Origin: Gammaproteobacteria bacterium
GTDB taxonomy: Bacteria > Pseudomonadota > Gammaproteobacteria > Eutrophobiales > Eutrophobiaceae
Assembly: GCA_965222155.1 (NCBI GenBank)
Contig: CBDCTH010000012.1
Location: 1,728,001 to 1,792,000 of the forward strand
Direction: 5' to 3'
DNA: 64,000 nucleotides
Below are positions 10,870 to 42,005 of the stretch, one piece after another. Under the pieces are notes generated by a model, which saw only the letters and a list, made by a program, of their open reading frames with translations, did no database searches and had not been told where the DNA came from. How positions within the stretch are numbered: position 1 is the first letter of the stretch; every line of letters begins with the position of its first letter. The translations under genes and the position numbers were made by a program.

Positions 10870-10879
10870 CAAAATATCA

Positions 10880-10909: not shown

Positions 10910-11007
10910 CTCGAGTTAGCGGAAACGCCTGTTGAATTCATCTTCATTTTGTATAACAACTTCAATTAAGCTAATGTAATACCTTCCGTTTCAAGGTATG
11001 CGCGGCA

Positions 11008-19911: not shown

Positions 19912-20009
19912 TTTTGAAATTTGGTAGTCAAACCTATGTGGCTTCGTACTGTTTAAGAACCCTCAATTCAGTCAGTTAAGAACAATGAATACAGAACAGC
20001 GGCTAAGCG

Positions 20010-20085
20010 CGAAATGCCATTGAAACAGATCCGGGAAAAAGATATGGTAAACCAATTGTTGTAGTCGGCATCAAATATAGTAAAT
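20010..20085 (+). pseudogene. Possible C-terminal remnant of an AAA-ATPase/PD-(D/E)XK protein
   Basis: Broken frames give LKQIREK / YGKPIVVVGIKYSK, resembling that family's C-terminus. Confidence 0.3.
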
Positions 20086-20118
20086 TAGACCTACAATCAT
20101 AAGAGTACACTAGCGGTC

Positions 20119-20370
20119 GTGGAGGCGATTGGTTTCATGATCGGCGTGCAGCGTCGCACCTTCCGCGACCAGTACCCGGTAAATATACAGGCTGCCGAGC
20201 TGGTTGGGCAGTTACACGATTCTCTATTTGAATCAGGCTACCGCGGCCACGACCTGGAACGTTTCCTGGTGCGGATTGTGTTCTGCCTGTTTGCTTACGA
20301 CACCGGTATCTTCGAGCCGCGCGATATCTTCCTTTATTACATCGAAACCCACACGGGGGAGGACGGTTAT
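20119..20370 (+). pseudogene. Fragment of MmeI-like (type IIL) RM enzyme N-terminal region
   Basis: VNIQAAELVGQLHDSL..SGYRGHDLERFLVRIVFCLFAYDTGIFE...IETHTGEDG; base composition changes right after. Confidence 0.65.
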
Positions 20371-20397
20371 CAACTCGCAACCATTGGAAATTTATTC

Positions 20398-20952
20398 ATG
20401 GGCATCAAATTGAAAAGACAAGATAAAACTGACAGCAAGGATAACTTAGCAAATTTGAGGCACGGACAAGCTATAGCAATGCAGTACGTGGGATATTTAC
20501 TCCAGCGGCTTCCTGAAGAAAAAAACCAAAAGTACCTTAGCGGATTATTAGAGAATGTTACCTTAGAAGGCGGGGGAAATGGTATTGAACAAACACGTTT
20601 AGGGTGCAATTGGGTAGTTAATATAGTAATGGCTCTTACAGTAGAATTTGCGTTGAAGGCATTGCTGATAAAAAATAGAGTAGCACCCCATAATCGACAC
20701 GACTTGTTGAAATTGTACACACAACTCTCACTTGAGACACGGAACCAACTTGAAAACAAATTTCGAACCTTTATTGAAAATGGGGAAGTTATTGGTACAG
20801 ATTCTCTATGCCAACTTCTGACATCTCACAAAGATGATTTCGTAGATTGGCGCTATCTTGATAAAGAGCCAGAAAATCTAATTTCCGAGTGTCGCGAATT
20901 GCAATTTGCAGTTCTCGCAATTTTAGATGTATATGACTCAGAGAGATTGTGA
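20398..20952 (+). CDS. HEPN-domain-like protein
   Basis: ALTVEFALKALL...RHDLLKLYTQL...FVDWRY pattern; AT-rich; in frame with the upstream MmeI fragment. Confidence 0.6.
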   Translation: MGIKLKRQDKTDSKDNLANLRHGQAIAMQYVGYLLQRLPEEKNQKYLSGLLENVTLEGGGNGIEQTRLGCNWVVNIVMALTVEFALKALLIKNRVAPHNRHDLLKLYTQLSLETRNQLENKFRTFIENGEVIGTDSLCQLLTSHKDDFVDWRYLDKEPENLISECRELQFAVLAILDVYDSERL

Positions 20953-21100
20953 TCCCCTCCCAGTAAATGTGCGTTTTCTTATAGGCAGAGCCAGCCATTT
21001 ATCCTGTTTATATGGTTTGTAATACCTGTTTTACAAAAGGGCAAGTTTTGATGACGTATAGCGTATACATATCCTGTATACCTTGTTAAGATTCTAATCC

Positions 21101-21379
21101 ATGATTCAGAGTTTCAAGGACTCAAAGACTGAACGATTTTACGGCGGTCAACGAGTCCAGAGCTTTCAAGGGTTTGCTGATCAGGCGATTCGTCGATTGG
21201 CCGTTTTGGACAACGCGGAATCGTTGCGGGATTTAGCGGGACTGCGGAGTAATCGACTGGAAGCGTTATTCGGTAATCGGGCAGGACAATACAGTATTCG
21301 AATCAATCGACAATGGCGGATATGTTTCCGCTGGGAAGACGACGGTCCCTATGACGTTGAGATAGTGGACTATCACTGA
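21101..21379 (+). CDS. higB: HigB (RelE-family) toxin
   Basis: MIQSFKD...NRLEAL.GNRAGQYSIRINRQWRICFRW...VEIVDYH. Confidence 0.93.
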   Translation: MIQSFKDSKTERFYGGQRVQSFQGFADQAIRRLAVLDNAESLRDLAGLRSNRLEALFGNRAGQYSIRINRQWRICFRWEDDGPYDVEIVDYH

Positions 21380-21392
21380 TGAGGATGAAGAC

Positions 21393-21695
21393 ATGAGCGA
21401 GAATAATATGCGCCCGGTACACCCCGGTGAGATTTTGCGTGAAGAGCTGGAGGAACTAGGCATGTCGGCTAAGGCAATCGCCCGTGAATTGGGTGTGCCT
21501 CAAAATCGGATTTCGGACATTTTGAGAGGGCGACGGGGAATTACTGCCGACACAGCACTCCGGCTGGCTCGCTATCTCAATACGACACCGCAATTGTGGC
21601 TGAACCTGCAAAAAGCCTATGAATTGCGGGTAGCTGAACTCGAAGCGGGCAAGGACATTGCAAAACAAGTGAAACCAAGACAGGAGGCTGCTTAG
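21393..21695 (+). CDS. higA: HigA antitoxin
   Basis: PVHPGEILREE...HTH...RGITADTALRLARY...WLNLQ..YEL. Confidence 0.93.
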   Translation: MSENNMRPVHPGEILREELEELGMSAKAIARELGVPQNRISDILRGRRGITADTALRLARYLNTTPQLWLNLQKAYELRVAELEAGKDIAKQVKPRQEAA

Positions 21696-21893
21696 TTCTA
21701 TGGGCACACGAAACTCTTTTTGTACCCAAACAATCTGACGAGGTAGTAATCAATTGTTTTCGTAAGTTCGCGGAAGAAATCGGAAATACATCGTTTCAAG
21801 TTACTGCGTTCGGTGGCTCTACATTTAATATCGATTTAATTGGCTATTCTGTTATTCTTGAACGCCACCTGAACTGAAAAGGAGGAAGTCATC

Positions 21894-22514
21894 ATGGAAA
21901 ATGAACTGCATCGAGCACCTGCCACCCCTGAAGAAATCTGGGCTATCCTGCGAGAAGTCTCCGAGAAGCAAAAAGAATCGCGGAGAATAGCTGACCAGGA
22001 AATGGAGGAGCTTCGTGAACGGATGAAGGAAACCGATCGGCAGATGAAGGAGACCGACCGGCGCATCGATAAGCGGATGAAGAAGCTGGAAGGGTTGTTT
22101 ACGACGCAGTGGGGCAAGCTGATGGAAAGTCTGGTGGAGGGGGACCTGGTGGCGCTGTTGCAGGCGCGCGGCATCAGGGTGGAGTCCACCTATCCGCGGG
22201 TGAAGGGTCGGCGCAATGGCGGGCATTATGAGTTTGACATCCTGGCCGGGAACGGGGCGGAGCTGGTGGTGGTAGAGGTAAAGACCACGTTGAACGTCGA
22301 CCACGTGAAGCAGTTTCTGGCCAAGCTGGGAAGGTTCATGGAGTATCAACCGGTGTACCGGGGCAAGCAGGTCTACGGTGCAGTGGCGTATTTGCAGGCA
22401 GAGCAGGCCGCGGAGGTGTATGCACAGCGGCAGGGGTTGTATGTCATCCGGGCCACCGGCAGCAGTGCCTGTATCATCAATGATACGGACTTTACACCCC
22501 GGGTGTTTGACTGA
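21894..22514 (+). CDS. Coiled-coil + PD-(D/E)XK nuclease-fold protein (DUF3782-like), copy 1
   Basis: AGGAGG RBS; MKETDR repeats; WGKLMESLV; EFDIL...VVEVKTTL. Confidence 0.75.
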   Translation: MENELHRAPATPEEIWAILREVSEKQKESRRIADQEMEELRERMKETDRQMKETDRRIDKRMKKLEGLFTTQWGKLMESLVEGDLVALLQARGIRVESTYPRVKGRRNGGHYEFDILAGNGAELVVVEVKTTLNVDHVKQFLAKLGRFMEYQPVYRGKQVYGAVAYLQAEQAAEVYAQRQGLYVIRATGSSACIINDTDFTPRVFD

Positions 22515-25865: not shown

Positions 25866-28001
25866 TCATATCTTACCGACCTCGCACATCAGCCCTTTCA
25901 GGTTGGTCGAACCGGATTCAGGTCCGACATTCAGATCATCGGTGAGGAAATTGATGTTACATTCCCTGAAGCCATAGTCCGGCGCTTCTCTTTCCGGATA
26001 CCACCAAGCGAACTCGGCTGCCACCACGCGTGGGTCAATGCCGTCGCTTACTTTTGCCTTATGTTTTACTCTGCCACGCGGGCTTTCGATGTAAATCCAG
26101 TCGCCATGTTCTATATTTCTTGCAGCGGCCGTATCCGGGTGGATAGTCAACAAGGGATCGGGATGTGTTTTGCGCAGTAACGGGCTTTGCCGGTGTTCAG
26201 ATCCGAAATATTCCTGGACGCGCGTTCCGGTCGTTAATACCAGGGGGTATTTTTCCAGAAATTCTGGCTCCCGGGCCGGACTCTCCGGTGGTTCCTGGTG
26301 AAACGGCAGCGGGTCGTATCCCCAGTCCTTGTTTTGTTGTATGTAGAAATCCAGCTTGCCGGACTTGGATTTGAACCCCTCAGTCTCGTATTTCCTGTAC
26401 CTGGGCTCATTGCGCAGGTAATCCATCTCCTTGAATTGTTCCCAGGTGACACCGGCTGGCGCGAGGATGTAGTCCAGGGACTCTTCATAGTTCTCCCAGA
26501 AAGAATCCTCAAATCCCAGTTTCTTGCCCAGTTCGTTGAGGATCTCGACGTCAGCCATTGCCTCGCCAGGCGCATCCACAATCTTGGGCCTGGGGAAGAT
26601 ATAGCCGTGGGATTTCCAGTAGTCCGCGATGTTATCGAACTCGATCCAGGTCTTTGCCGGAAGGACGATATCCGCAAGCTCCGTTGTCGGGGTGGGAAAG
26701 ATATCCGCCACTACCAGGAATTCGATCTTCTTCAGCGATTCATAAACCCGTGACGTATTCGCCCTGACCACCAGCGGGTTGCTGCCCATGACAATCATTG
26801 CCCTGACCGGGTAGGGTTCGCCTGTCTCGATGGCATCCCATATCACATGTGGCGTAATGCGGTTGATAGACGCTGCCAACCGGTAGCGGGTGCCGCCGAG
26901 CATCTTCTCGACATTGTCCAGGAACTGGTTGCCACAGAACTCCATGCGCGGCAGGCCGGGTGGGGGGCCGAACATGACATTGCCGCCGGGGGCATCCAGG
27001 TTGCCGGTCAACGCTGACATATAAATGAGCACGCGATCCGAGTTAGAACAATTGACGCCGTGCTCGATTCCGACGCCCCACTGGATGGCAGAGGGCTTGG
27101 TCTGTGCGAACAGCCTGGCCGCCTCAATGATCTTTTCCTTTGGCACCCAGGAAATTTCCTCGCCGACCTCAGGCGGGTATTCTTCCAGGCGTTCACAAAA
27201 CTCGTCGAACCCCGCCGTATAGTTCTCGACAAAATGGCGGTCATACAGGTCTTCCTTGACCATCACATGCATCATGGCCATAGCCAGCGCGACGTCGGTA
27301 CCTGGTCGGAGTTGTAACCAGATGTCGGCCTTTTCCGCCAGTTGGGTGCGCTGGGGGTCGACGACGATGTAGCTGGGTTTGCGTTTGAGATTCAGGCCCA
27401 GGTTGACGCCGATGTATTCATCGGGATTGGATTTTATCGTGTTGCTGCCCCAGGACATGATGCACTGGGGGTGATTGTCATAATCCACGATGGGGACCGA
27501 CATGCCCAGTTGCTTGGCTACGGCCAGTCTCGGCAGGTAACAGACGTGGCCGTTTGCCAGCACATTGGGTGATCCGAACATATTTGCGACGCGGTATACA
27601 AAGCGATGATGGCTGCGTCCGGTGCCATGTCCGAAGATGACTGACTCCGGTCCGTTCTCCGCTTTGATCCGGTTGAATTTTTCGGCAATGGTACCCAGGG
27701 CTTCGTCCCAGCTGATTCTTTCCCATTTGCCCTCGCCGCGTTCTCCGACCCGCTTTTTGGGGTACAACAGGCGATCCTTGTGGTACTGCAAGTCGGCAAT
27801 GAAGCCTCTTGCCTTCCTGCACAGGTAACCCTTGCTGATGGGGTGATCCATATCACCCCTGATATTCACGGCTTTGCCGTTTTCCAGCGTGACATAGACA
27901 CCGCAACCAGCATGGCCGCAGGCGCGGCAATTGGTGTGGACGACCTCCGTCTCGATTTCCTGGTCTTCGTGGTCAACTACAGAGACTGTTTGTGTGTCCA
28001 T
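25866..28001 (-). CDS. Cytoplasmic bis-MGD Mo/W oxidoreductase, acetylene-hydratase-like clade
   Basis: CRACGHAGC...C.K; RLLYPKKRVGERGEGKWERISWDEA; HVCY putative Cys ligand; AWWYPE; no Tat signal. Confidence 0.8.
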   Translation of the reverse strand: MDTQTVSVVDHEDQEIETEVVHTNCRACGHAGCGVYVTLENGKAVNIRGDMDHPISKGYLCRKARGFIADLQYHKDRLLYPKKRVGERGEGKWERISWDEALGTIAEKFNRIKAENGPESVIFGHGTGRSHHRFVYRVANMFGSPNVLANGHVCYLPRLAVAKQLGMSVPIVDYDNHPQCIMSWGSNTIKSNPDEYIGVNLGLNLKRKPSYIVVDPQRTQLAEKADIWLQLRPGTDVALAMAMMHVMVKEDLYDRHFVENYTAGFDEFCERLEEYPPEVGEEISWVPKEKIIEAARLFAQTKPSAIQWGVGIEHGVNCSNSDRVLIYMSALTGNLDAPGGNVMFGPPPGLPRMEFCGNQFLDNVEKMLGGTRYRLAASINRITPHVIWDAIETGEPYPVRAMIVMGSNPLVVRANTSRVYESLKKIEFLVVADIFPTPTTELADIVLPAKTWIEFDNIADYWKSHGYIFPRPKIVDAPGEAMADVEILNELGKKLGFEDSFWENYEESLDYILAPAGVTWEQFKEMDYLRNEPRYRKYETEGFKSKSGKLDFYIQQNKDWGYDPLPFHQEPPESPAREPEFLEKYPLVLTTGTRVQEYFGSEHRQSPLLRKTHPDPLLTIHPDTAAARNIEHGDWIYIESPRGRVKHKAKVSDGIDPRVVAAEFAWWYPEREAPDYGFRECNINFLTDDLNVGPESGSTNLKGLMCEVGKI

Positions 28002-28086
28002 TATCCTGTCAACACTCTGATTTTAGGCGTATAGCGTAAATGTTAGTTTAAATTTATTTACCATTTATGCTATATTTGGTCATATT

Positions 28087-28884
28087 ATGTCGAGTAATCG
28101 TCAAAATGTGATACCGGATGAACACGGAGATGACGAGGATTTGTCCCGGCAAGTTATTGCTGTAGCACATGACCGGCCTATCGGCTTTCGGGCAACACCT
28201 CATAAGCATTTTCGTGCACAACTCGTCTTCGCCAGTAATGGTGTAATGCGAGTCAGTACAGATAGTGCAACGTGGATAGTCCCGCCACAGCAGGCAGTCT
28301 GGGTACCCGCCGGTGTCACCCATTCTGTGATTAATGATAGTGCCGTTGCATTTCGAACTCTTTATTTGCATCCACGGGTTGCTGATGAACTGCCATCCAG
28401 TTGTTACGTTGTCAGTGTTACGCCTTTACTTCGAGAGTTAATATTATATATGGTAGCTTTACAGGATGATTCGGGTTGCGAATTATCAAATAGGCTTATT
28501 GCAGTAATCCCTGAATTGCTAAAAACACTAAAGCCTGAACCATTACAACTACCATTACCTGAAGACAGGCGATTGCAAATGATCACGAATCATTTGATGA
28601 GTGATCCATCTGACAATCGTTCACTAATTGAGTGGTCCGAACTAGCCGGCGCAAGTCAAAGCACTATAGAAAGATTGTTTAAACGTGAACTAGGCATGGG
28701 ATTTCTTAACTGGCGGCAGGGTCTCCGGCTACTTTCGGCCATTTACATGCTTTCTGATGATGTGCCTGTCACTACTATTGCGTACGAATTAGGTTATGCC
28801 AGTACCAGTGCTTTTATAGCCATGTTTCGTAGAAAGCTCGGACAACCTCCAAAGCAATACATGCAATCGTACAAAATGGGGTGA
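28087..28884 (+). CDS. AraC-family regulator with cupin sensor domain
   Basis: HKH..AQL, WIVPPQQAVWVP, LPLPEDRRL, LGYASTSAFIAMFR. Confidence 0.9.
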   Translation: MSSNRQNVIPDEHGDDEDLSRQVIAVAHDRPIGFRATPHKHFRAQLVFASNGVMRVSTDSATWIVPPQQAVWVPAGVTHSVINDSAVAFRTLYLHPRVADELPSSCYVVSVTPLLRELILYMVALQDDSGCELSNRLIAVIPELLKTLKPEPLQLPLPEDRRLQMITNHLMSDPSDNRSLIEWSELAGASQSTIERLFKRELGMGFLNWRQGLRLLSAIYMLSDDVPVTTIAYELGYASTSAFIAMFRRKLGQPPKQYMQSYKMG

Positions 28885-29157
28885 GGTCGTTACACACTGC
28901 CCCATCAAAGTTTTTCATACCGTAATTCAGGTTCAGCAGCCAAATACGACTATGCGGAATCAAGCGTAAAATTTACGGTATTTTCATTTATAATGTTGAA
29001 TTCCCTAAAACTGAATTGTTTATTTCCGATAGCAACAAGCGACCTGGTGAGAAATCCGGGCTAGTTCAATGCACATAAAAAATGATACAAAATCGCTTGA
29101 TTCTGGATTATATTGTATAGAATTCTCGTCCTGGTGTAACCGCGTGTAGAAGGAAAC

Positions 29158-29623: not shown

Positions 29624-30661
29624 TTGGAGTTATCCGGCCGGGTGGTTACCGGGACAGGCCGGGCTGCGGGTTTTACCGAACTCGGATATGCAAAGAAGCA
29701 ATTTCTCGACAAACTGGGTATCGATACCTGGCCCGGCACACTTAATGTAAAACTGGACGACACAGAGTCACTTGCCGACTGGCAATCACTCAGGGATGGA
29801 GACGGCATCGGTATCAGCGACCCTGACGGTAACAGCTGTCATGCCCGCAGTTACCCGGTACAAATCAACAACCAGGTAACCGGGGCCATAATCTTTCCCG
29901 AGATCAGTGGTTACCCGGCTGACCAGGTAGAGATTATCGCCCCGGTTTCACTGCGCCAACACCTCTCATTGAACGACGGCGACCTTCTCAGACTAAACAT
30001 TATCAGACCTGTCAGAGCCAGCGCTGTCCTGTTTGACCTGGACGGCACGCTGGTCGATACCGTGGGCGCATTTTACCTGCTCGCCAAACTGACCGGAGCC
30101 GAGTTCGGCCTGGAAATATCCAAAGATCGCATGTATGAGACCTTGAATCACGGCATTTCCTATTGGGAGCATGTCGTGCCGAACTCAGTGGAAGATCGCC
30201 CGGCCATGATTGATAAGCTGAACAACAGGGCCATGCAACTCTGGCCCGATATTATCAAAGACAAAGCCGGGGTTTTCTCTGGTGTGTACGAAACCCTGTC
30301 AGCCCTCAAAACAGCGGGTTATACGTTGGGTATAGTCACGGGATCAGGGGAGCGATCCCTGGGATTATTGTATGAACTGGGCGTGGCTGGACTTTTCGAC
30401 GCGGTCATTACCGGCCCCGACGTCAAAAAACGAAAACCGGATCCGGAAGGCCTGTATAAATGCCTGAAACGCATGGACGTTACCCCGGGCGATGCGGTTT
30501 ACGTAGGAGACAGCGTGATCGACATGCAGGCAAGCCGTGCCGCGGGAGTCCTGCCCATAGGGGTACTCACCGGCGCCGGCACGTCTCCCACCTTATGCAA
30601 GGCCGGGGCCTACAGGATCGTCAGCAGCCATGAGCAGGTGATGGATTTACTGGCGACCTGA
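29624..30661 (+). CDS. CTP-dependent riboflavin kinase (DUF120)-HAD phosphatase fusion
   Basis: GRVVTGTGRA, WPGTLNV, EIIAPVSLR..L.LNDGD; then FDLDGTLVD, VTG, KPDPE, GDSVID; probable TTG start at 29624. Confidence 0.8.
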   Translation: MELSGRVVTGTGRAAGFTELGYAKKQFLDKLGIDTWPGTLNVKLDDTESLADWQSLRDGDGIGISDPDGNSCHARSYPVQINNQVTGAIIFPEISGYPADQVEIIAPVSLRQHLSLNDGDLLRLNIIRPVRASAVLFDLDGTLVDTVGAFYLLAKLTGAEFGLEISKDRMYETLNHGISYWEHVVPNSVEDRPAMIDKLNNRAMQLWPDIIKDKAGVFSGVYETLSALKTAGYTLGIVTGSGERSLGLLYELGVAGLFDAVITGPDVKKRKPDPEGLYKCLKRMDVTPGDAVYVGDSVIDMQASRAAGVLPIGVLTGAGTSPTLCKAGAYRIVSSHEQVMDLLAT

Positions 30662-31123
30662 GCGACCTCTGGGAGAATCCAGCTCGTAGCCACGCTGTTC
30701 ATAATCGAATCCACCCAGTTCGAGACGTTTCAGATCCGTTGCCTGCGGCGACGCATAATAGGCCCGGATTTCCTGCATCAAACCCGTACCCGTATCGAAC
30801 ACGACCCACTCGGCGCCACGCAGGACCGTACCCTGGCTGGTCTTGAAATGGGTCCATTCAATCACCGCTTCTCCCTTTTGCGCGTCGATTAGCAAAGCAT
30901 CAATGGTCCAGTACGAACCGCCCTTCCGCACCGCGGCGCACCAGCGTTCGGCGATCTTCGCCGCACCCCGGAATGGCCCTTCATACATACCCGGCGGAAA
31001 ATAATGGATGGCATCGGGCGTGAAGCAACGTATTATTTTCTCCCGGTCAGCCTCATTACAACCGTCGTAGTATTCACGCATCAGGGCTTCCATTTTTGCA
31101 GTGCTCAAATGTTCTATTGCCAT
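30647..31123 (-). CDS. SnoaL/NTF2-like protein
   Basis: YYDGCN..D...CFTPDAIHYFP...AVIEWT...EIRAYY. Confidence 0.75.
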   Translation of the reverse strand: MAIEHLSTAKMEALMREYYDGCNEADREKIIRCFTPDAIHYFPPGMYEGPFRGAAKIAERWCAAVRKGGSYWTIDALLIDAQKGEAVIEWTHFKTSQGTVLRGAEWVVFDTGTGLMQEIRAYYASPQATDLKRLELGGFDYEQRGYELDSPRGRSGRQ

Positions 31124-31137
31124 GATTATTACCTTAT

Positions 31138-31200
31138 TCTGTAAAATTCGTATTAATGACCTGTTTTTTTCGTATTAACAGTCTGTAAAATTCGTATTAA
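31138..31200. repeat. Three direct repeats with 22-bp period
   Basis: TCTGTAAAATTCGTATTAA (31138), CCTGTTTTTTTCGTATTAA (31160), TCTGTAAAATTCGTATTAA (31182). Confidence 0.8.
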
Positions 31201-31273
31201 CCTGTGGAAAAGTTCAAGTTGATAGTATATATTCTGCGACATCAAGCAAAATCAAATCCACGCAATACGACCC

Positions 31274-31528
31274 ATGTACCCTAGAAGCATACAACCTTTC
31301 CTTGAGGAATTACTCACGGAATTCCGTGTGCTTTACCTGACGGGACCTCGGCAGGCGGGCAAAACCACACTGGCGCGTGCCGTTGCTGTAAAACTGGGTA
31401 TGGACTACATCACCCTGGATGATCAAGCAATTTTGGCATCCGCTAAATCGGACCCACACGGGTTTATACGTTCCTTGGGCGCCAGGAAAGTAGTATTGGA
31501 TGAGTTTCAATTAGCGCCAGGTAGTTGA
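31274..31528 (+). pseudogene. Truncated AAA+ ATPase (AAA_14/DUF4143 type)
   Basis: MYPR...LTGPRQAGKTTL...YITLDD...VVLDEFQ, then stop; the family is normally about 400 aa. Confidence 0.8.
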
Positions 31529-31712
31529 AGACCGTCGCGAATACTACTAGCTGTATGTGGTAACCAATTGCGCTACCGAACCCAATCTTCAGGAACCTGT
31601 TCATGACCCGGCACGGCTACGGTGGCACGAAGTTACCAAGGTCGCCCACTATTATTTTGGCGTGGATGCCCTGAAGCAGCCCCTATAGGTGAGGGGCATA
31701 TACAACAACATC

Positions 31713-32849
31713 ATGAACCGCGTTGAACGCTATGAAAGCTTGATCAAGGCGCCTTCCCCGGCCCCGTCGCACTGGGCTGCTTCCTGTACACACCAGGAAT
31801 GCTCACTGCATCAGTTGTCGCCGTATATCGGCAAGTTAAAAAGTATTATTGCCCATGACCTCATTTTGCAATACAGCAAACCCGGTGATCTGGTAGCAGA
31901 CATGTTCTGTGGCAGCGGGACTGTACCCCTGGAGGCAGCCCGCCTTGGGCGACGCGTATTTGCTTCCGACACAAACATATATGCTGTCACGCTGACCAGA
32001 GGCAAACTTGAAGCGCCCGCTGATACCGAAACTGCGATTAAAGTTCTTAACCGCCTTCTGGAACATGCAAAAACACTACCTGTGCCGGACCTCAGGTCTG
32101 TCCCGAAATGGGTTCGTGCTTTCTTTCACCCTCAGACACTCAAAGAGGTATTCCGTCTCAGTGAATTTCTCAGCAACGAACGGCATCATTTCCTGCTGGC
32201 GTCCCTGCTTGGTATTCTGCACCATCAAAGACCTGGATTTCTGTCGTTTCCCAGCAGTCACCTCGTTCCATATCTTCGGTCAAAAAAATACCCCAGGGAT
32301 AGCTATCCTGAACTTTATCAATACCGCTCCGTTGCCGAGCGCCTGCAAGCTAAGGTAAAGCGCGCACTGAAACGCCCACCAACACGGTCATTAAATAAAT
32401 TTGTCGATGACATCAGCAGGTCCTCTGTGGAATCCGTTAACCTCCCTGACGATATCGATTGTGTTATCACAAGCCCCCCTTATATGAACGCGCTGGATTA
32501 CAGCCGTGATAATCGTTTGCGTCTCTGGTTTCTCGGTGAAACCCACCTGGAAGCACCAGATCGCGCGTTAGCGAGTCTTCATGCTTTCAGGAAATTAATC
32601 AGTTCACTGTTGAAACAATTGCAACAAAAGATGCGCTTGGGCGGTCATTGCGTCTTTGTCATAGGCGAACAGACCTTTCGGGGTGGAGGACGATTTCCAT
32701 CCGAAGAGTTAACAAGGATTTTTTTATCACCCCCTTCAACATTTCAGCTATGCGATGTTGTCAGCGACATCATCCCTGACGTTCGCCGTTCGCGGAAATA
32801 TTTTGTCGGGGTAAAACGGGAGAATATTCTTGTATTCAGGAAGTTTTGA
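31713..32849 (+). CDS. DNA amino-methyltransferase (SPPY, probable N4-cytosine)
   Basis: HQLSPYIGK, DMFCGSGT (motif I) preceding ITSPPY (motif IV). Confidence 0.85.
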   Translation: MNRVERYESLIKAPSPAPSHWAASCTHQECSLHQLSPYIGKLKSIIAHDLILQYSKPGDLVADMFCGSGTVPLEAARLGRRVFASDTNIYAVTLTRGKLEAPADTETAIKVLNRLLEHAKTLPVPDLRSVPKWVRAFFHPQTLKEVFRLSEFLSNERHHFLLASLLGILHHQRPGFLSFPSSHLVPYLRSKKYPRDSYPELYQYRSVAERLQAKVKRALKRPPTRSLNKFVDDISRSSVESVNLPDDIDCVITSPPYMNALDYSRDNRLRLWFLGETHLEAPDRALASLHAFRKLISSLLKQLQQKMRLGGHCVFVIGEQTFRGGGRFPSEELTRIFLSPPSTFQLCDVVSDIIPDVRRSRKYFVGVKRENILVFRKF

Positions 32850-32851
32850 AT

Positions 32852-35342
32852 ATGCGTAGAAATCTTCCTCCAAAAGAATTATTTCTTGGAAAAACGATTG
32901 GAAGATTTCCAAACCATGTAATTCAAGAGCATGTCAATTCAGGCAATAATGGTCATTTGTTTCTGGCCTTCGATCAATCAACAGAAAGCAAACTCGCGTT
33001 TAAAGTTGTTCCATCTGACAATCTGCCGGATGATGAAGATGAACAACAAATCTATTTAATTGAGGCAAAAAAGGCCAATATTTTACAGCACCCCTCCGTT
33101 GTCCAATACATTGATGTTTTTCCATATCATGTTCCCGATACACTGGTGAAGTGTGTGATTTTTGTATGTAATTTCGTGGATGGCATAAACCTTAGAGACT
33201 ATATAAAGAAAAACCGCTCGGAGATTACAATTGTATTTCTTGCGAACAATGTTTGAGCTATTGTATGAGCTTAAACAACGCAAAATGACCCATGGTGACC
33301 TGCATGCAGGTAACGTTCTTATCTCGAAATCTGAATATGACATCTACGATAGAATTACCTTCCGTGTAACAGACTTTGGTGTAGGTGAATTAACAGGGCT
33401 TTTAGCTCACACAAATGATTATTTATATACTTCTGATACGCTCAGGCAACTGCTGGAATGTATAGAATATCAAAATTGTGAAAGTCGGGATCGATATGCC
33501 TACGAAATTCTTCGTCATGATTTTTTGGAACGGCATCTGACTGAGACAGATCCTCTGGCTGACACATTAGCAATGCAGCCGCAGAAAATGCTGGAAAAAC
33601 TGGACTCTATAGATGGAAAGTATCTGGAGAAGACAACAGGTGAAATCGTTACAACACTAGTCACACCCTTCGACTACCCTAACTGCGAGCAAATAGGAAA
33701 TTCCCATCTTTTACTCAAGAACCTCTATTCCGACCGTTTACTTGGATTATTGGAAATTAGGGCGCGATCAAATTTAATGTTAACCGGACCTCGAGGATGT
33801 GGAAAAACTACTGTTTTCCGTGCACTGAGCCTCGAATATTTGATCTCGACTGAAGATGATCAGCCAAACCGTATCAACTATATCGGCATCTATTATAGAT
33901 GCGACGATCTCTATTTCTCTTTTCCAAGATATAAGACTCCTGGACGATTTGAAGCACTGGACGTCCCCATGCATTTCTTGATCGTGACGTTGCTGGCAAC
34001 TGTACTGGAACAGATTGGCACCTGGGCAAAAAAGCATTTTCCGGATGAATTCAAAAAGAAAGAAGAAGCACTTGTTCTGGAACTTTGGAATTTATTTGAA
34101 TGGCCGTCTCTGAATAATCCAAATGCCAGGCAACTGGCTACGCTAATAAATAAATTAAAAACCAAGGAAAGAAAACGCGCTGCAAAAAAGCAAAATTTTG
34201 TTCATGTACAGACTGAACCTGTCAAAGGCTATTTTGGCCCTGGGGTTATGTTTGATGCTTGTCGTCTTATACGCGACAAGTTTTCTTTCCTTAACGACCG
34301 TCCTTTCTATTTCTTTATTGATGATTATTCTCACCCGAAAATTACTAAGGAGTTACAAGCAAACCTGAACCGATTGCTCATGCACCGCAGCTCGGATGTT
34401 TTTTTCAAACTCTCAACAGAGAGCCCTGTCTCTTTTGTACGCGAGGATGTGGACGGTAAACAGTTTGTAGAATCTCGTGAGCTTGATTTAGTAAATCTCG
34501 GACTGAGATACATCAAAGATGACAAAAATCAAGCGATTGAATTTCTTGATGACCTATTCAGCCGTCGCTTCCAAAGGGTTGATGGATATCCTGTACAAAC
34601 TCTTGAACAACTACTGGGATCAATACCACGCAATGAAAACGCCACGGCCCGTGCTTTTCGAGAGAAACAAGGGCGTCAAAACTATGCTGGCAGAGAAACT
34701 ATAGCCGCAATGTGCAGCGGCGATATTCACTATATTATTCGTCTTGTCGCGAGGATGGTGGATGATTATGGGGGGCCAGACGCTCTGGCAAACTCCCAAA
34801 CACCTTGCATACCTCCTCAACAACAACATGATTCTATCCGCGCTGCTGCAGGTTCGTTTATGGAGTCTGTACGCACTTTACCTCGTTGGGGGAAACAACT
34901 TGCAGAGGCAACGGCAACATTCGGTAGTGTTGCGCATTCTTATCTCATGTACGAAACATCAACCAACGAAGCTAATGAGCCTCCTCACCAAGCTTCCCGG
35001 ATTGAACCATACGAGACATTAAATTTATCCGAGGAAGCACAAGAAATACTTGATGAACTATTACGCTACTCAATTCTCATTGAAGATCCCCGGGGGAAAA
35101 GTCGGAGAGGAAAGGTTGTGCCAAGATTTTTTCTCAGGCGTTATTTAATCCCCCACTTCCACCTGACATTCAGCCGTAGAGACTCCCTCGAATTGGAAAA
35201 TGACCAGATCGAAACCTTATTGTGTAAGCCGCAGACATTCGAGGAACAGATGAGATTAAAATCTTTAGAAGATGCAGCGCGCCGGCGCCGAAGAGATCCA
35301 GATCAACTGCAACTCCTCGAAGAGGAGGGTCCGCGTGTTTGA
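32852..35342 (+). pseudogene. Ser/Thr protein kinase-P-loop ATPase fusion, split by a frameshift near 33235
   Basis: ORF1: SGNNG Gly loop, AFKVV, EAKK, HPSVV. ORF2: HGDLHAGNV, TDFG, then GPRGCGKTT and FFIDD. Confidence 0.8.
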
Positions 35343-36429
35343 TAAAAATATCCTAAGGACAGATGAACGATTAAGCAAGGTAGCCTGGCCTGCTTTGCAA
35401 ACAATCGATGTTCCCATAGTAGGATCTGGTGACTGTTTGTTGATATGTGCGGGATTTGAAGATCGATCTATCGAAACACTACGCCGAATACTGGATGCTA
35501 GAAAATCCGGCTTCGTTCTTGGATTAGTAAGTTATTTACCCAAGCAACCCGAGAATAGGCAAGAAGAATTACACACAATCATCCAGAATGCTGATCTTCA
35601 AGTAAGAAGATTTGTTTATGACCGTGAAAATCCAGCAGGTATAGGGAAGGAGCTAAAAAGCTTTACAGAGGGATTCGACCGCGTTTTTATTGATATTTCC
35701 GGCATGTCACGCCTGCTTATCGTTCAGTTACTGGTTGCCCTGTTGACTCGTGACAATGATTCAGTAACGCTAATCTATGGCGAGGCCGATGTATATCCAC
35801 CATCTGAAGATAAATTCGAACAAGATTACAGAGAGAATAATTCCAATCCGATCCCAGGTTACCTGTCGTCTGGAATTTTTGAAATAGCAACAACTCCTGA
35901 ATTGAGTTCTGTATCTATGTTAGGTGAAGCCCTCAGGCTGATAGCATTTCCGTCCTTTGATCCTGCACAGCTCACGAATTTGCTCCATGAATTACAACCT
36001 GCTTACACAGAATTTATTCATGGCGCACCACCAGCCCGAAAGAACAAGTGGAGAACGGAGGCAATCCGCAAACTTAACCGATCTACACTGGATGAACTTC
36101 GGGGGAAAAGGGACCATGAGACCTCCACGCTTGACTATAGGGAGACACTACATAAGTTGCTTAAGATATATGCAGAACGCAGTATGTTTGATCGCCTTGT
36201 AGTTGCTCCGACCGGTAGTAAGATGCAAGCAGTAGCTGTGGGTTTATTCCGCGCGGCGTTGTATGACGTTCAAATCGTTTATCCAACTCCACAGGTTTTT
36301 ACGACACCGAAAGAACATACTTTAGGGCTGCGTCAACTGTATCAACTAGATATACCTGCCGAAGCTTTTATTAATGTCATCGGGAACTCCAGGGACGATT
36401 TCAGCGATACGCTCGAAACACATCCATGA
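35335..36429 (+). CDS. Uncharacterised protein with two CARF-like Rossmann repeats
   Basis: GTG start after GAGGAGG, overlapping the upstream stop; CAGFEDRS...IDISGMSR...LIY and FPSFDP...APTGSK...IVYP. Confidence 0.6.
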   Translation: MFDKNILRTDERLSKVAWPALQTIDVPIVGSGDCLLICAGFEDRSIETLRRILDARKSGFVLGLVSYLPKQPENRQEELHTIIQNADLQVRRFVYDRENPAGIGKELKSFTEGFDRVFIDISGMSRLLIVQLLVALLTRDNDSVTLIYGEADVYPPSEDKFEQDYRENNSNPIPGYLSSGIFEIATTPELSSVSMLGEALRLIAFPSFDPAQLTNLLHELQPAYTEFIHGAPPARKNKWRTEAIRKLNRSTLDELRGKRDHETSTLDYRETLHKLLKIYAERSMFDRLVVAPTGSKMQAVAVGLFRAALYDVQIVYPTPQVFTTPKEHTLGLRQLYQLDIPAEAFINVIGNSRDDFSDTLETHP

Positions 36430-36580
36430 TTCCAAAGGAGTGTAAACGTCTGGCGGAGGTGGATTTTCCAATCATTTTGGTATCCAGATACACAGGCCAT
36501 TAGAAATCTATCCGGCATGGGCATCCTTCTACGCTTTAACACCCTTCAAAAACTCGTATGAACCTATGAAAAAATTGAAG

Positions 36581-37871
36581 GGAACCTCTAATAATTGACG
36601 ATTTCCGTTACTATCGCTATCTATGCGGGCAAGCCGGGTTCTTTTACATATAAATGTATTCGGCCAGTGGCGAAATGACCCCGTGCTCGCCTTCATCGAC
36701 CCCTTAATCGGGCCGTTTTATTGCCTTCGGGTGTCGGTTTGACACCAGCCGGGCGTTGTCTCCGTCAAGCAGGCGCGCTGACCCCTTCCAGGTAACACAG
36801 TCGTCGCATGTTATACCCCAGGTTCAGCATCCCTATGGCCAACTCACTGCGCGCCAGCCCGATACAGCGTATCAGCTTGGCCCGGGTCGCACACTGCGCC
36901 CCGAACACGTGCTCCACCCGCACCCGCACCTTGGCCCGCGTGCGGTTGCCCTGCTGCGCCCACGCCGTCAACGGCTTGTTGCGGCGCCCCTTGCGCTGAA
37001 TGTGGCTGCGGTAGCGCTGGGCCTGCAAGCGTTCCTCCTGCTCCCTGGAACGGTAGGCGCGGTCCGCCCATATCGCCTTGCTGCTGTTGTGCTCATCCAA
37101 CAACTCATCGAACAACTGCGAGTCATGCACGTTGGCCGGCGTCACCGCATACTTGCGTACCAGCTTGTGTTTGTTATCGACATTCACGTGGTTCTTGTAC
37201 CCGTAATGACTCCTGCCCCGCTGCTTCGTCCAACGAGCCTCCACGTCCTTCTGCCGCCGCTTGGATTTGGCTGCCTCATCGTCCCAGCCCGCAGGCGCCT
37301 CCCCCGCCTTAAGCGCCGCATTCTCCTCGCGCGTGTTGCGCTGCACCGGCACCAAGGAAGCATCCACCCACTGCCCCGTGCGCGCCCGATACCCCAAGTC
37401 TGCTAACTGCTCGGCAAACCGTGCAAACAGTTCCTCCGTCAATTTCAGCTCCACCAACTTCTCACGAAACGCCCAAAAGGTCTTCGCAGCCGGTGCCCGA
37501 CGCACATTATCCAACCCCATAAACCGCTGAAAACTGCGCCGGTACTCAAGCTGATATTCCAACTGCTCATCACTCAACCCGTACAAATGCTGTAACACCA
37601 ACCCCTTGAACAGCAGCACCTCATCCCGACGCGGGGCGCCCGCATTGCGCTTGCGGGTCGTGGGTCGAATACGCACCAATAGCGGACGAAACGCCTCCCA
37701 GTCCACTACCTCACCCAACCGCACCAGGGGATCCTTCAGTTTATTCAAGCGGGTGTCTTGCAAGTCAAACAACGAACCGAATATGTCTTGTGTCTTCATG
37801 AAACCACCTTGAGGAAAAAGTTGAAATAAGTCACCGCTATTATATCATTCGATTGAATAAATAGAGGTTCC
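36581..37871 (-). mobile_element. Complete IS5-family insertion sequence (1291 bp)
   Basis: GGAACCTCTA terminal inverted repeats; TTGAAG direct repeat at 36575-36580 and 37872-37877. Confidence 0.9.
36765..37799 (-). CDS. IS5 family DDE transposase
   Basis: VDWEAFRP, YGLSDEQLE, VDAS, HYGYKNH, NVHDS, ADRAY, RVRVEHVF. Confidence 0.93.
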   Translation of the reverse strand: MKTQDIFGSLFDLQDTRLNKLKDPLVRLGEVVDWEAFRPLLVRIRPTTRKRNAGAPRRDEVLLFKGLVLQHLYGLSDEQLEYQLEYRRSFQRFMGLDNVRRAPAAKTFWAFREKLVELKLTEELFARFAEQLADLGYRARTGQWVDASLVPVQRNTREENAALKAGEAPAGWDDEAAKSKRRQKDVEARWTKQRGRSHYGYKNHVNVDNKHKLVRKYAVTPANVHDSQLFDELLDEHNSSKAIWADRAYRSREQEERLQAQRYRSHIQRKGRRNKPLTAWAQQGNRTRAKVRVRVEHVFGAQCATRAKLIRCIGLARSELAIGMLNLGYNMRRLCYLEGVSAPA

Positions 37872-37914
37872 TTGAAGTTGGTAACATACATTCTGTAGTT
37901 ACTATGATAACGCT

Positions 37915-39438
37915 ATGAAAAGACGGGAATTCATAATCGGGACAACCCTGGGCCTGGCATCAGCCCAGGTTCCTTCGCCACTAGTTGCAGGGGTCAAGTT
38001 CTCCAGGAATCCGTTTACGCTGGGTGTTGCCTCCGGTGACGTCACAGAAGACTCGGTGGTGCTGTGGACACGGCTTGCGCCGGAACCGCTGGCGGTGGAC
38101 AGCGGGATAAAAGATGTCGCCATACCTGTGCATTGGGAATTATTTCAGGATGAAGCCATGCAAACGCCCATCAGGCAAGGTGAGGAATTAGCCATTCCGC
38201 AGCTTGCCCATTCTGTACATGTTGATGTACAAAACCTTGAACCCGGACAAGAGTACTGGTACCGGTTTTCAGTGGGCAAACACACCACGGAACCGGGACG
38301 TACAAAGACCCTGCCTGCTGCCGGCAGTCAACCCGCTTCCGTTCGTTTCGTCACTGTATCCTGCCAGAACTACACACACGGTTATTTCGTGGCATACGAC
38401 CATATCATTGCAGACAACCCGGACTTCGTAATTCACCTGGGTGACTATATCTATGAAACATCCTATGGCGAGACCTTCAGAAGGCACGAAACTGAAGACA
38501 TGCCGTTTACACTTGACGGTTACCGGCGACGGCATGCGTTGTATAAAACCGATGAATCCCTTAAATGGGCTCACGCCAGGCTACCTTTTTTTGCCACGCT
38601 GGATAACCACGATGCCGTGATTGATATTGATCCTGCCGGACTGGCGCGCAGAGCCGCCGCGTACCAGGCCTGGTATGAACACATGCCGACCCGCGGCTAC
38701 GGCAAGCCCGGCGACAACCGGTTTCAACTCAGCAGGACTATCCGCGCTGGGAGACTGGCACAAATCAACCTGCTGGATACCCGCCAATTCCGCGCCGAAC
38801 AGTCCCTCTGCGCTGGCGGCGATCCCGCTTATGGCTTCGGCAACTACCGGCCGCGCTGTCCTGAAATGTTCGCTGAGCAGCGCAGCATGCTGGGACAGGA
38901 GCAGGAACACCGGTTGGTGCAAAGTATACTGAACAGCACTGCGGCCTGGAACGTGTTAGCCTCATCAAGTGTCTTTTCGCCCTTTCGCCTGGAGATCGGT
39001 AAACAGATATTCCGCTATGTAGGTTCCTGGGACGCTTACCCTGCCAACAGGGACAGGGTCGTCAACGCAATCAACCGGAGCAAGACCGGCCAGGCCGTTA
39101 TCTTGAGCGGCGACATGCACTCCTTCTGGGCCATTGACGGCGCGCAGTCCATGGAAGCTGCCGAACGAATTCCGGTTGTAGAGTTTGTTACTTCTTCCAT
39201 CACGGCCAACTGGCCCGAAACAATGGCAAAACCCATTACCGATAACCTGGCTCAAAACCCCCAGATAAAACTCTACGAACCGGATAAACGCGGGTACCTG
39301 TTACATGAGATTACCGCGACGGAGTGGCAAACTACGGCCCGCGCTGTGCATAACCCCAGGGATGCACAGTCAAATGCTTTCGACCTGGCACGTTTTGTTG
39401 TCGAGAACGGTAAACCCGGTTTCAGGCAGATACTTTGA
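37915..39438 (+). CDS. phoD: PhoD-family alkaline phosphatase (Tat)
   Basis: KRREF; FTLGVASGD, VLWTRL, HLGDYIYE, DNHD, LDTRQFR, WDAY, SGDMH. Confidence 0.88.
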   Translation: MKRREFIIGTTLGLASAQVPSPLVAGVKFSRNPFTLGVASGDVTEDSVVLWTRLAPEPLAVDSGIKDVAIPVHWELFQDEAMQTPIRQGEELAIPQLAHSVHVDVQNLEPGQEYWYRFSVGKHTTEPGRTKTLPAAGSQPASVRFVTVSCQNYTHGYFVAYDHIIADNPDFVIHLGDYIYETSYGETFRRHETEDMPFTLDGYRRRHALYKTDESLKWAHARLPFFATLDNHDAVIDIDPAGLARRAAAYQAWYEHMPTRGYGKPGDNRFQLSRTIRAGRLAQINLLDTRQFRAEQSLCAGGDPAYGFGNYRPRCPEMFAEQRSMLGQEQEHRLVQSILNSTAAWNVLASSSVFSPFRLEIGKQIFRYVGSWDAYPANRDRVVNAINRSKTGQAVILSGDMHSFWAIDGAQSMEAAERIPVVEFVTSSITANWPETMAKPITDNLAQNPQIKLYEPDKRGYLLHEITATEWQTTARAVHNPRDAQSNAFDLARFVVENGKPGFRQIL

Positions 39439-40830: not shown

Positions 40831-41910
40831 GTGAATGAATTTTCAGTAAACACTGCCGTTGATTATCCCCGCACGGCGAGAACAGTCCTGAGCGGTAATG
40901 AGAAATCATTGTCAAAAACATTTGAACTTATCCGTTCTGACAATAAGTTACTAACTATAGTTAAAGTAAATGATAATGAAAATACCCTCTATAGCACCCG
41001 CATCAATCTTGTTGCGGAAGAAGGCATAGGTTATTGGGAATTTCTACAACTTTCCGAAGACTTATATGTCATTGCAACTGATTGCCAATATCACAATACC
41101 CATGCTGAAACGGTTTTAGGTGAAGATTTCCTCGAATTTCATTTCAAGGTTTCCGGTGAACTGCTTATGGAATTAGGCGAGGAGGAAAAACTCAGTATCA
41201 GAGGCCCCTCCCTGTTAATCTGGAAACAACCGGCGGGATGCAATATAAAAGAATGGATTAAAGGTGGAACCCGGGAATCATCTCTGACCCTGTATTGTAA
41301 ACCAAGCTTATTTACAACAAGACTGGGAATGACGCCAGGTCAACTCCCCCGGATAGTCGAGTCGTTTATAAATGGTGAAAACAAGGCCATAGAGCATGAA
41401 GTTATTCCGCTCAATCCCGCCCTGGGATTTTCCATAACCAATTTGTTGCGTTCCGACTTTACCGATAATTTCCATCTGATACATACGAAGGCGAAAACAT
41501 ACGATTTACTATGCGATATCCTGCAATACATTTGCTCCCCGAATGTGCATAGCGGTGAAAATGCCAGGCCGTTGTCTACTTATGAAAAACAAAGACTGCA
41601 ACAGGCAAGGGATATTCTATCAACGACTTTCAGCCCACACCCCACAATAAAAGACCTGGCCAGGGAAATCGGACTTAATGAGACCAAATTCAAACGAGGC
41701 TTCAAGAAACTGTTCGGTTCAACCATTTATGAATATGGAAATTACCACCGCATGCAAAAAGCACTGGAGCTTTTACAAACAAGTGAATTATCCATATCGG
41801 ATATCGCCCAGGCGGTCGGCTACGAATATCAGACCAGCTTTACCGCTGCCGTGAAACATTTCTTTGGTGTAACACCAAAACAATTACGGGATAGTACATT
41901 AAAAAATTAG
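40831..41910 (+). CDS. AraC-family transcriptional regulator
   Basis: C-terminal LAREIGLNETKFKRGFKKLFG...IAQAVGYEYQTSF. Confidence 0.88.
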   Translation: MNEFSVNTAVDYPRTARTVLSGNEKSLSKTFELIRSDNKLLTIVKVNDNENTLYSTRINLVAEEGIGYWEFLQLSEDLYVIATDCQYHNTHAETVLGEDFLEFHFKVSGELLMELGEEEKLSIRGPSLLIWKQPAGCNIKEWIKGGTRESSLTLYCKPSLFTTRLGMTPGQLPRIVESFINGENKAIEHEVIPLNPALGFSITNLLRSDFTDNFHLIHTKAKTYDLLCDILQYICSPNVHSGENARPLSTYEKQRLQQARDILSTTFSPHPTIKDLAREIGLNETKFKRGFKKLFGSTIYEYGNYHRMQKALELLQTSELSISDIAQAVGYEYQTSFTAAVKHFFGVTPKQLRDSTLKN

Positions 41911-42005
41911 TTTCCGGGATATCGATAGCAACTCCGTCGCCATTCCCGAGCAAGCGGGAATCCAGTCAGTGCCGGTATGACGGGGGACATGGCAAGTTAA
42001 ACCAG

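Follow-up and report, generated by a model that had tools for sequence, protein, structure and literature searches.

What kind of system is encoded by a DNA methylase, a kinase joined to an ATPase and a CARF protein that lie head to tail with no nuclease among them? We addressed this for three plus-strand genes at 31713-36429 of a 64,000-nucleotide stretch, here called the window, from a Gammaproteobacteria bacterium (assembly GCA_965222155.1, contig CBDCTH010000012.1, positions 1,728,001 to 1,792,000). The trio consists of a SPPY DNA methylase, a kinase::ORC-CDC6-like ATPase and a tandem CARF protein. An earlier note, made from the letters alone, had proposed a novel defence operon that matched no named system. 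The defence setting stood up, as relatives of the trio are embedded in Hma or type III restriction-modification (R-M) operons. The novelty did not: Pfam PF24389, the PADLOC CARF6 models, the PADLOC model CARF6--CARF_STK_AAA and the architecture outlined in the family description of Makarova et al. 2014 all cover parts of it, as the same note had allowed when it suspected that related ORC/CDC6-like operons might be catalogued. Judged by its matches to family models, the cassette is the kinase-effector form of a catalogued class, in which a PF24389 ATPase and a CARF6 protein are combined with an exchangeable effector and usually with a DNA methylase. We consider it likely that it is a horizontally acquired defence cassette, in which the ATPase and CARF6 would form the sensor core, the kinase would be the effector and the methylase would mark self.

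Three genes that form one unit

Gene 1 (31713-32849, plus strand) encodes a DNA amino-methyltransferase of 378 aa from the ATG at 31713, or 386 aa from a GTG at 31689. Its motif I (DMFCGSGT, 31899-31922) stands about 190 residues ahead of motif IV, and SPPY of this open reading frame (ORF) lies at 32472-32483. These motifs had been noticed before, and the assignment was supported by Pfam N6_N4_Mtase (PF01555, E=3e-12) and by the type II methylase models of PADLOC, of which MTase_II PDLC03325 was best (E=5.7e-22). When methylases of 360-440 aa were aligned (40 of 45 sequences), SPPY was kept in 40/40. The ATG of gene 2 (32852) follows 2 bases past the stop of gene 1, and the GTG of gene 3 (35335) overlaps the end of gene 2 (35342) by 8 bases, which agrees with the tight coupling described earlier. 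Pfam, PADLOC and NCBIfam revealed no nuclease domain in the trio, and the earlier statement that restriction nuclease motifs are missing is thus upheld. A scan of 31100-36800 gave 5 promoter-like and 7 terminator-like signals against 8.7 and 5.1 expected from shuffled sequence.

Gene 2 (32852-35342, plus strand) is a fusion. Its residues are numbered after an intact allele, the 833-aa protein P0123, in which a kinase-like domain (residues 1-266) is followed by an AAA+ ATPase, a helical lid and a C-terminal winged-helix-like part (residues ~286-833). The N-terminal piece matched Pfam Pkinase (E=7e-7). In the AlphaFold2 model (pLDDT 86) the kinase fold begins at about residue 19, and the top fold matches of the N-terminus were PknB-type kinases (TMt 0.59-0.69). 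The core of a Hanks-type kinase is present, with a glycine loop, the VAIK lysine (K51, 33002-33004), the helix-C glutamate (E71), the HxD...N loop (HGDLHAGN, residues 151-158, 33291-33314) and DFG (178-180, 33372-33380); G31, K51, E71, H151, D153, H155, N158, D178 and F179 were invariant in an alignment of 34 homologues. So were GPRGCGK (316-322, 33786-33806) of the Walker A motif GPRGCGKT and the two aspartates of Walker B (D494 and D495, 34320-34325). The earlier claim of a complete Hanks motif set beside a Walker A/B ATPase therefore stands for the catalytic and the ATPase motifs and falls for the activation segment: only 12 residues separate DFG (G180) from the next conserved helix (D193), so there is no activation loop with APE, and a peptide-binding C-lobe is likewise absent from a domain that ends at about residue 266.

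The ATPase part gave the clearest family assignment. Gene 2 matched Pfam PF24389 (ORC-CDC6-like) with 176.5 bits (cut-off 27, E=1.3e-51), and in the genome search the alignment also spanned profile positions 403-571. The PADLOC model CARF6--CARF_STK_AAA (PDLC01925) matched the C-terminal ORF of gene 2 with E=4.5e-19 and the intact allele with E=1.4e-25; positions 331-816 of that profile match gene 2 and positions 859-1175 match gene 3 (E=3e-8). A PDB sequence search with the ATPase part returned P-loop-level matches only (best E=0.0022). At the C-terminus a helix plus beta-hairpin unit carries a nearly invariant basic RGKSRRG (near 35091-35111) and, from the model, is a putative DNA-binding wing.

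Gene 3 (35335-36429, plus strand) encodes a stand-alone tandem CARF-like protein of the CARF6 group, 364 aa from the GTG at 35335 and with no effector domain. This start was preferred to an ATG at 35272 as homologues are 350-370 aa long. The protein matched nothing in Pfam and eight PADLOC CARF6--CARF_CARF_CARF models, best PDLC01917 (E=3.2e-15), as well as CARF3 models. Its AlphaFold2 model (pLDDT 81.6, pTM 0.86) has two alpha/beta Rossmann-like halves. The conserved loops DISGMSR (residues 120-126, after strand 116-120) and PTGSKMQ (residues 292-298, after strand 287-291) follow equivalent strands of the two halves, consistent with the CARF fold, which is Rossmann-like with conserved loops after strands 1 and 4, although fold scores were modest. 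Together with the CARF6 matches, the model confirms the effector-less, CARF-like protein with two Rossmann-like repeats that had been described before. A PDB sequence search with the gene 3 profile found nothing. Foldseek gave Can1 (6sce_A, prob 1.00, TMq 0.46) and the single-chain tandem-CARF Csm6 (9w3u/v/w, prob 1.00, TMq 0.37-0.40). Like these, gene 3 joins two CARF-like Rossmann halves into a pseudo-dimer in one chain; unlike them, it has no fused nuclease and no CRISPR linkage. The predicted complex of gene 2 residues 286-833 with gene 3 scored 0.07 against a mark of 0.32, which counts neither way.

The likeness to Can1 and Csm6, tandem-CARF proteins activated by cyclic oligoadenylates (cOA), raises the question of a type III CRISPR accessory, in which CARF6 would sense Cas10-made cOA in trans and the kinase-ATPase would be a cOA-controlled effector. 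The window's genome does encode Csm1 (697 bits, G000:C12:568700-571339) and Cmr2 (247 bits, G000:C12:560210-562132), and so has type III signalling capacity. On their common contig, about 1.16 Mb separate these cas10 genes from the cassette, however, and Csm1/Cmr2 rose above the curated cut-off in only 11/42 genomes with a complete cassette (many of them metagenome bins, so that some absences may be gaps), with none in the closest relative (G401). The cassette thus does not depend on Cas10. There was no cas gene among the recurrent neighbours of the loci and no SMODS cyclase match in the window's genome, and we regard an accessory role as very unlikely.

The likely defence cassette is widespread. 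A scan of one genome per species produced 57 loci from Gammaproteobacteria, Binatia, Nitrospirota, Gemmatimonadota, Acidobacteriota, Latescibacterota, Spirochaetia, Verrucomicrobiota, Desulfobacterota-type lineages, Myxococcota, Gaiellales and a bin labelled archaeon, which span at least a dozen phylum-level lineages. Ten were cut by contig ends; the remaining 47, with at least 3.7 kb upstream, could be evaluated. Methylase, kinase N-part, ATPase and CARF occurred in the same order in 42 of these 47, and the five exceptions were truncated remnants. The co-occurrence that the earlier note had wished to see checked is therefore found. In each of the 42 complete loci, as in the window, the CARF protein has an ORF of its own. 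All-against-all clustering of the flanking ORFs yielded only three widely shared families (58, 53 and 45 sources) and no fourth. The trio is thus one conserved unit, far beyond chance.

Homologues were also sought with single parts. A full HMMER search based on the ATPase part returned 543 representatives at E<=1e-3. Among the best 150 of them, 84 have at least 750 aa, and 83 of these 84 carry the kinase; 20 relatives of at least 500 aa lack it. Two proteins of about 1220 aa (P0373 and P0376) are single chains of kinase, ATPase and CARF6 (E=2e-23 and 4e-17 against the gene 3 profile), and a third (P0386) is an ATPase-CARF6 fusion. Gene 3 has homologues in 1190 protein clusters at E<=1e-3; the source names of the best 120 all read "hypothetical protein", and the ESM Atlas returned only clusters of that name, none with Pfam families. 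Searched with gene 3, a phage collection gave no match and a plasmid collection one record. Public records likewise call gene 3 and its Bradyrhizobium counterparts "hypothetical protein", while the few gene 2 relatives that bear a name are called "protein kinase". One locus (L010, 1360-5460) has a cassette-methylase ORF of 1366 aa, with about 1000 unassigned residues ahead of the methylase domain, which could reflect a fusion, or an upstream gene that is read through.

A constant ATPase-CARF6 core and its effectors

We looked at other PF24389 proteins in a phylum sample of 401 genomes. The family was matched in 9 of them, the window's genome counted, and had no match in the one same-family genome sampled. 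Eight other loci were compared, seven of them from the eight other genomes and the last a second locus of the window's genome; G184 was left out, being of the same genus as G389 with a match at the same coordinates. A CARF6 gene directly follows the ATPase in 8/8 (E 2e-11 to 3e-220), and with the fusions described above, the ATPase and CARF6 are an obligate pair, adjacent in every locus examined and fused in some relatives. What precedes the ATPase varies: PRTase-CE in L071, L072 and L077, HD-CE in L073, a calcineurin-like phosphoesterase (Metallophos) in L074, L075 and L076, and an N-terminal ParA-like fusion in L070. On a Bradyrhizobium plasmid (NZ_CP088025.1, 69538-75559; L082) a methylase gene is followed by a gene for the kinase alone (246 aa) and then by ATPase and CARF6; of the four products, RefSeq gives a name to the methylase and lists the rest as "hypothetical". 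These are the swapped N-terminal effectors for which the earlier note had asked. As the effector position varies over a constant ATPase-CARF6 core, the kinase is one of several plug-in effectors. In L082 thyX comes directly after the CARF6 gene, and an annotated restriction endonuclease lies upstream.

The second locus of the window's genome is a paralogous cassette about 272 kb downstream (G000:C12:2031994-2038679; L070 4995-11680). It comprises two unannotated genes of 244 and 334 aa, a 935-aa ParA-like::ORC-CDC6-like fusion (PF24389 E=7.6e-85; PADLOC PDC-M28B E=8.8e-26), an N6_Mtase and a CARF6 protein (E=3.9e-18). This second cassette is like the HINPO systems of a 2026 preprint, and unlike them has CARF6 and a methylase attached.

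Set against this class, the window has every part: PF24389 above its cut-off, a tandem CARF6 directly after the ATPase, an effector fused ahead of it and an adjacent methylase. It is like the PF24389 plus CARF6 conflict cassettes of PADLOC (PDLC01910-01925) in the ATPase family, the downstream CARF6, the neighbouring methylase and the placing of an effector before the ATPase. It is unlike the cassettes with PRTase-CE (PF24390), HD-CE (PF24391) or the calcineurin-like enzyme in that its effector is a minimal kinase-like domain fused to the ATPase and not a separate nucleotide-targeting enzyme. The ATPase/CARF6 class is known from family models only, and presumably goes back to surveys by Nicastro and colleagues in 2023 and by Makarova and colleagues in 2020 (NAR), to judge from neighbouring Pfam numbers.

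Methylases of the N6_N4_Mtase, N6_Mtase, C5 DNA_methylase and D12 families adjoin the core in 5/8 of the other PF24389 loci, the remaining three having been scanned at some of their neighbours. That a methylase of any chemistry (N4/N6, N6, C5, Dam-like) accompanies a nucleotide sensor with neither nuclease nor signal synthase would also suit another reading, in which the methylase barcodes the chromosome for a methylome-derived danger signal rather than for self/non-self reading on DNA. A phage that degrades host DNA would release methylated nucleotides or short oligonucleotides, these would bind CARF6, and the ATPase would assemble and fire its effector, here the kinase. Across phyla, conservation of the cassette methylase extends over most of the protein, down to the SPPY motif, unlike in fast-diversifying restriction specificity domains, which also speaks for this idea. 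So does a precedent: by the preprint's account of its trigger, PUA-Cal-HAD responds to Dam-derived m6-dAMP from phage-degraded host DNA and acts through a Calcineurin-CE effector (bioRxiv 10.64898/2026.01.15.699771). The "CE" of that effector is the Pfam label of PRTase-CE and HD-CE, which occupy the kinase position in the loci above, and the precedent suggests that the cassette methylase could supply the precursor of the CARF6 ligand.

PUA-Calcineurin-CE-HAD is the only tested system we found with such a "conflict effector", and as the preprint presents it, host methylation supplies a soluble nucleotide trigger. It differs from the window in having a PUA-like sensor, no ATPase, no methylase of its own and an effector that depletes dNTPs. 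A sensor that is PUA-like and not CARF is already a point against the analogy. Judged by its basic winged-helix part, the ORC-like ATPase would bind DNA, and it would have no obvious role in the sensing of a soluble nucleotide. The window protein and that of L073 share PDLC01917 as their best model while their methylases differ (SPPY amino against C5), which is slight evidence against a matching of sensor to methylase. Finally, we know of no CARF domain that binds a mononucleotide, and this too counts against a methylome-derived signal. We think such a signal unlikely here; if true, it would extend the ligands of CARF domains to a class beyond cyclic oligoadenylates, and would explain why unrelated methylase families sit on the same ATPase-CARF6 core with neither nuclease nor cyclase.

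The self-marking defence cassette, which we prefer, was also compared with systems that share some of its parts. Close in protein architecture are the fused Zn-ribbon/S/T/Y-kinase/AAA+/CARF/wHTH proteins, a small family characterised in the family description of Makarova et al. 2014 (PMC4012209) by a "distinctive AAA+ ATPase with an arginine within the P-loop". Gene 2 resembles this family (CARF6--CARF_STK_AAA in PADLOC) in joining a kinase to an AAA+ domain with a P-loop arginine (GPRGCGKT) and in having a CARF domain as partner. It differs from the family so described in that the CARF protein is a separate gene and that a Zn ribbon is missing, with no Pfam match to one in gene 2 and no cysteine cluster in residues 1-20. 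The passages of that paper on the fused family mention no methylase partner.

BREX type 2/Pgl, as outlined in PMC12839542, comprises the PglX methylase, the PglW kinase with a degenerate ORC/Cdc6-like domain, the ORC/Cdc6-clade ATPase PglY/BrxC, and PglZ. On that outline the window is similar in uniting a DNA methylase, a protein kinase and an ORC/Cdc6-clade ATPase without a nuclease, and dissimilar in having a CARF protein and no PglZ, BrxC-type domains or BrxB. The PADLOC models of PglW, PglY and PglZ had no matches in the window genes, PglZ, BrxC and PglY gave none there even at E<=0.1, and no gene for PglZ, BrxC or PglY was among the recurrent neighbours of the loci. Gene 1 met the PglX model PDLC02541 over a 46-residue stretch at motif I only (E=3.5e-7), and the MTase_II models fit it far better. 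Membership in BREX type 2/Pgl was rejected on the absence of PglZ, BrxC and PglY and on a PglX match confined to motif I.

MADS, in the operon description of PMC13662399, has eight genes (mad1-mad8) with two ATPase-nuclease modules, MAD3/4 and MAD7/8. Gene 1 is weakly like mad2 (E=3.9e-7), the kinase of the intact allele like mad6 (E=6.8e-18) and the P-loop region like mad8 (E=2.7e-5). The window unit has three conserved genes, no nuclease and a CARF protein, of which MADS has none, and its kinase reached 24.9 bits against the NCBIfam MAD6 model NF047741, whose cut-off is 460; with three genes only and no nuclease, MADS was rejected. Plain restriction-modification of types I-III was rejected as well, since the trio has no cognate nuclease and the Res genes near some relatives belong to a surrounding type III system. 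PD-T4-6 was likewise rejected, its likeness being confined to the kinase.

A decayed island and an 11-base gap

The cassette is poor in G+C (0.40-0.46 over 32001-36000, against 0.55-0.57 in the flanks), which fits acquisition from outside. It had been described as AT-rich and set between a truncated ATPase gene and an IS5, and both neighbours were identified. The left one (31274-31528, plus strand) is an AAA_14-type fragment of 84 aa that retains the first ~82 of ~413 residues (AAA_14 E=4e-10; PADLOC PDC-S01 E=5.2e-27; 41% identity to residues 4-82 of the 413-aa homologue in L009); it is a flanking remnant outside the cassette. The right one is an IS5-family insertion sequence (36581-37871, minus strand) with a transposase ORF at 36765-37799 (minus strand; DDE_Tnp_1 E=1.4e-25, DUF772 E=4.7e-17) and inverted repeats of 16 nt (36581-36596 and 37856-37871, 88% complementary). 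Other patches of low G+C in the window (10001-11000, 20001-22000, 28001-29000 and 41001-42000; 0.415-0.467, the rest mostly 0.50-0.57) may be further acquired segments.

Two shorter remnants show what the cassette was once part of. At 31500-31676 (plus strand) an HmaA-type SNF2/NOV_C helicase gene survives as 59 codons of its 3' end, with 2 in-frame stops and 80% identity to residues 1079-1137 of the 1137-residue helicase of the closest relative, locus L002. At 36426-36536 (plus strand) an HmaB-type DUF1156 methylase gene has left 37 codons of its 5' end, 78% identical to residues 1-37 of the 993-residue L002 protein, and these end ahead of the insertion sequence. The L002 cassette, 82% identical in DNA over 5 kb, lies between HmaA (E=1.5e-180) and HmaB/HmaC (E=4.6e-108 and 7.8e-100) in the orientation of these genes, with junctions of 4 to 10 bases. 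The chromosomal flanks are shared too: 30329-31137 (minus strand) has 78% nucleotide identity to L002 2-810 and includes a SnoaL-like gene at 30647-31123 (SnoaL_2 E=1.2e-10), and 37886-38998 (plus strand) has 79% identity to L002 15904-17016 and leads into a PhoD-like phosphatase gene at 37915-39438 (PhoD E=2.2e-78). What survives in the window is thus the core of an island that was once embedded in Hma, at a hotspot common with a related species. At the left island edge we noticed a perfect 19-nt direct repeat (31138-31156 and 31182-31200), and an overlapping 38-nt stretch (31187-31224) matches the right edge of the L002 island (15866-15903) at 89% identity; the hotspot may recombine or have its attachment site here.

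Similar embedding was seen elsewhere. DUF1156 genes come directly after the cassette in 4 loci, and in L003-type loci it has a type III methylase (E=5e-186) on one side and the restriction enzyme of that system (E=1.3e-214) on the other. L003, L004, L005, L006, L013 and L029 (Binatia, Nitrospirota, Porifericomitaceae) have the cassette between or beside type III R-M genes in the same orientation, which may reflect shared regulation or a cooperation in function. Genes embedded in Hma are mostly defence systems, as Payne et al. 2024 (bioRxiv) showed, who validated seven of nine tested candidates. Hma is a host locus distinct from the cassette, and the cassette is not among the nine embedded candidates named in the preprint's passages on such genes.

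Mobility and decay also bear on whether the methylase and the kinase-ATPase could be an addiction or epigenetic module, that is, a modification-dependent toxin-antidote pair that stabilises a mobile island. The cassette is mobile and patchy, being found in many phyla, low in G+C and absent from the same-family genome mentioned above; its methylase is tightly coupled to a potentially toxic kinase, and it outlasted the decay of its Hma host system in the window. Repeated same-orientation embedding in Hma and type III R-M operons is, on the other hand, the pattern reported for defence genes, and a toxin-antidote pair would leave no role for the CARF sensor and the ATPase. The remnants point the same way. 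In L056 the methylase abuts a C-terminal fragment of CARF and the kinase-ATPase is gone, while L011 and L051 keep a truncated ATPase and have lost the methylase, so loss is tolerated either way. An addiction module is in our judgement improbable. Further decayed copies are L057 and L058, with CARF fragments only, and L004 and L015, with a frameshifted gene 2.

Decay of another kind concerns the window's own gene 2, which in this assembly is split into two ORFs in different frames (32846-33256 and 33231-35342). The split results from 11 bases that are absent after 33236: aligned with three homologues, the window lacks them within the kinase domain. With AAA_14, HmaA and HmaB stubs and an IS5 as neighbours, one might take the cassette for a dead relic that erodes with its island, gene 2 being truly frameshifted in the sequenced cell line. 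We compared Logan contigs over window 32700-33800 and found the 11 extra bases after 33236 in 4/4 runs from 3 studies, at a word depth of 10 to 203; contigs of two of these runs (X11 and X12) were otherwise identical to the window. P0123 from the protein database consists of the window fragments, a 129-residue prefix and a 701-residue suffix, both identical, bridged by 3 residues. The frameshift is thus not the common state but either a gap of the assembly or an allele of a minority, and the operon needs no repair of the kind that the earlier note had assumed. A programmed frameshift or a homopolymer error was rejected in view of the 11-base gap against homologues and against the contigs of the four runs. 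With genes 1 and 3 intact, and the remainder of gene 2 identical to the intact allele, a dead relic seems very doubtful. Runs labelled as sponge metagenomes had small word shares only (0.05-0.18).

How the cassette may work and what it means

The following mechanism would suit a self-marking defence cassette. The methylase would mark the host chromosome as self. The ATPase would bind DNA through its basic C-terminal winged-helix part and work as an ATP-driven switch, while the CARF6 pseudo-dimer would bind a nucleotide ligand that licenses or restrains this switch. Upon infection the switch would activate the fused minimal kinase, which would phosphorylate a host or phage target and so stop phage growth or the cell. 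The scheme first suggested for this locus, in which the ATPase senses unmodified DNA or inhibition of the methylase and triggers the kinase, is compatible with the data and leaves the CARF protein without a role.

Several observations weigh against a self-marking defence cassette, or against parts of it. Sensing of methylation by the ATPase, nucleotide binding by CARF6 and a protein-directed kinase are predicted activities. We found no experiment on any cassette member in the literature, and function is read from context. The cassette encodes no enzyme to make a CARF ligand. For gene 3 Foldseek gave modest E-values to the CARF proteins (2.5e-5), which tandem universal stress proteins reach as well. 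The kinase has the catalytic loop HGDLHAGN and not HRDLKPxN; with the absent activation segment, an HGDLHxxN loop also resembles RIO-type and small-molecule kinases, and gene 2 relatives show weak Pfam matches to ABC1, Kdo and APH. Given this loop, these matches and the minimal domain, protein phosphorylation is no more than the default reading. It is the closest relatives of the window whose loci are embedded in Hma or type III R-M operons, and a few embedding events may account for them all. Finally, the 11-base gap could be a real minor allele, as X11 and X12 may be the window's own sample and contigs hide minority variants.

Our literature searches found no description of this cassette; Nicastro 2023, Makarova 2020 and Burroughs 2015 may already cover the kinase variant and the methylase link. 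The class has been catalogued in computational surveys, yet apparently none of its members has been tested, and the family is large. Three subjects that mostly occur apart come together in the cassette: DNA methylation, CARF nucleotide sensing free of CRISPR, and an ORC-like ATPase switch that takes plug-in effectors. One tested member would settle the ligand of a CRISPR-independent CARF, and whether methylation here labels self or gives rise to a danger signal.

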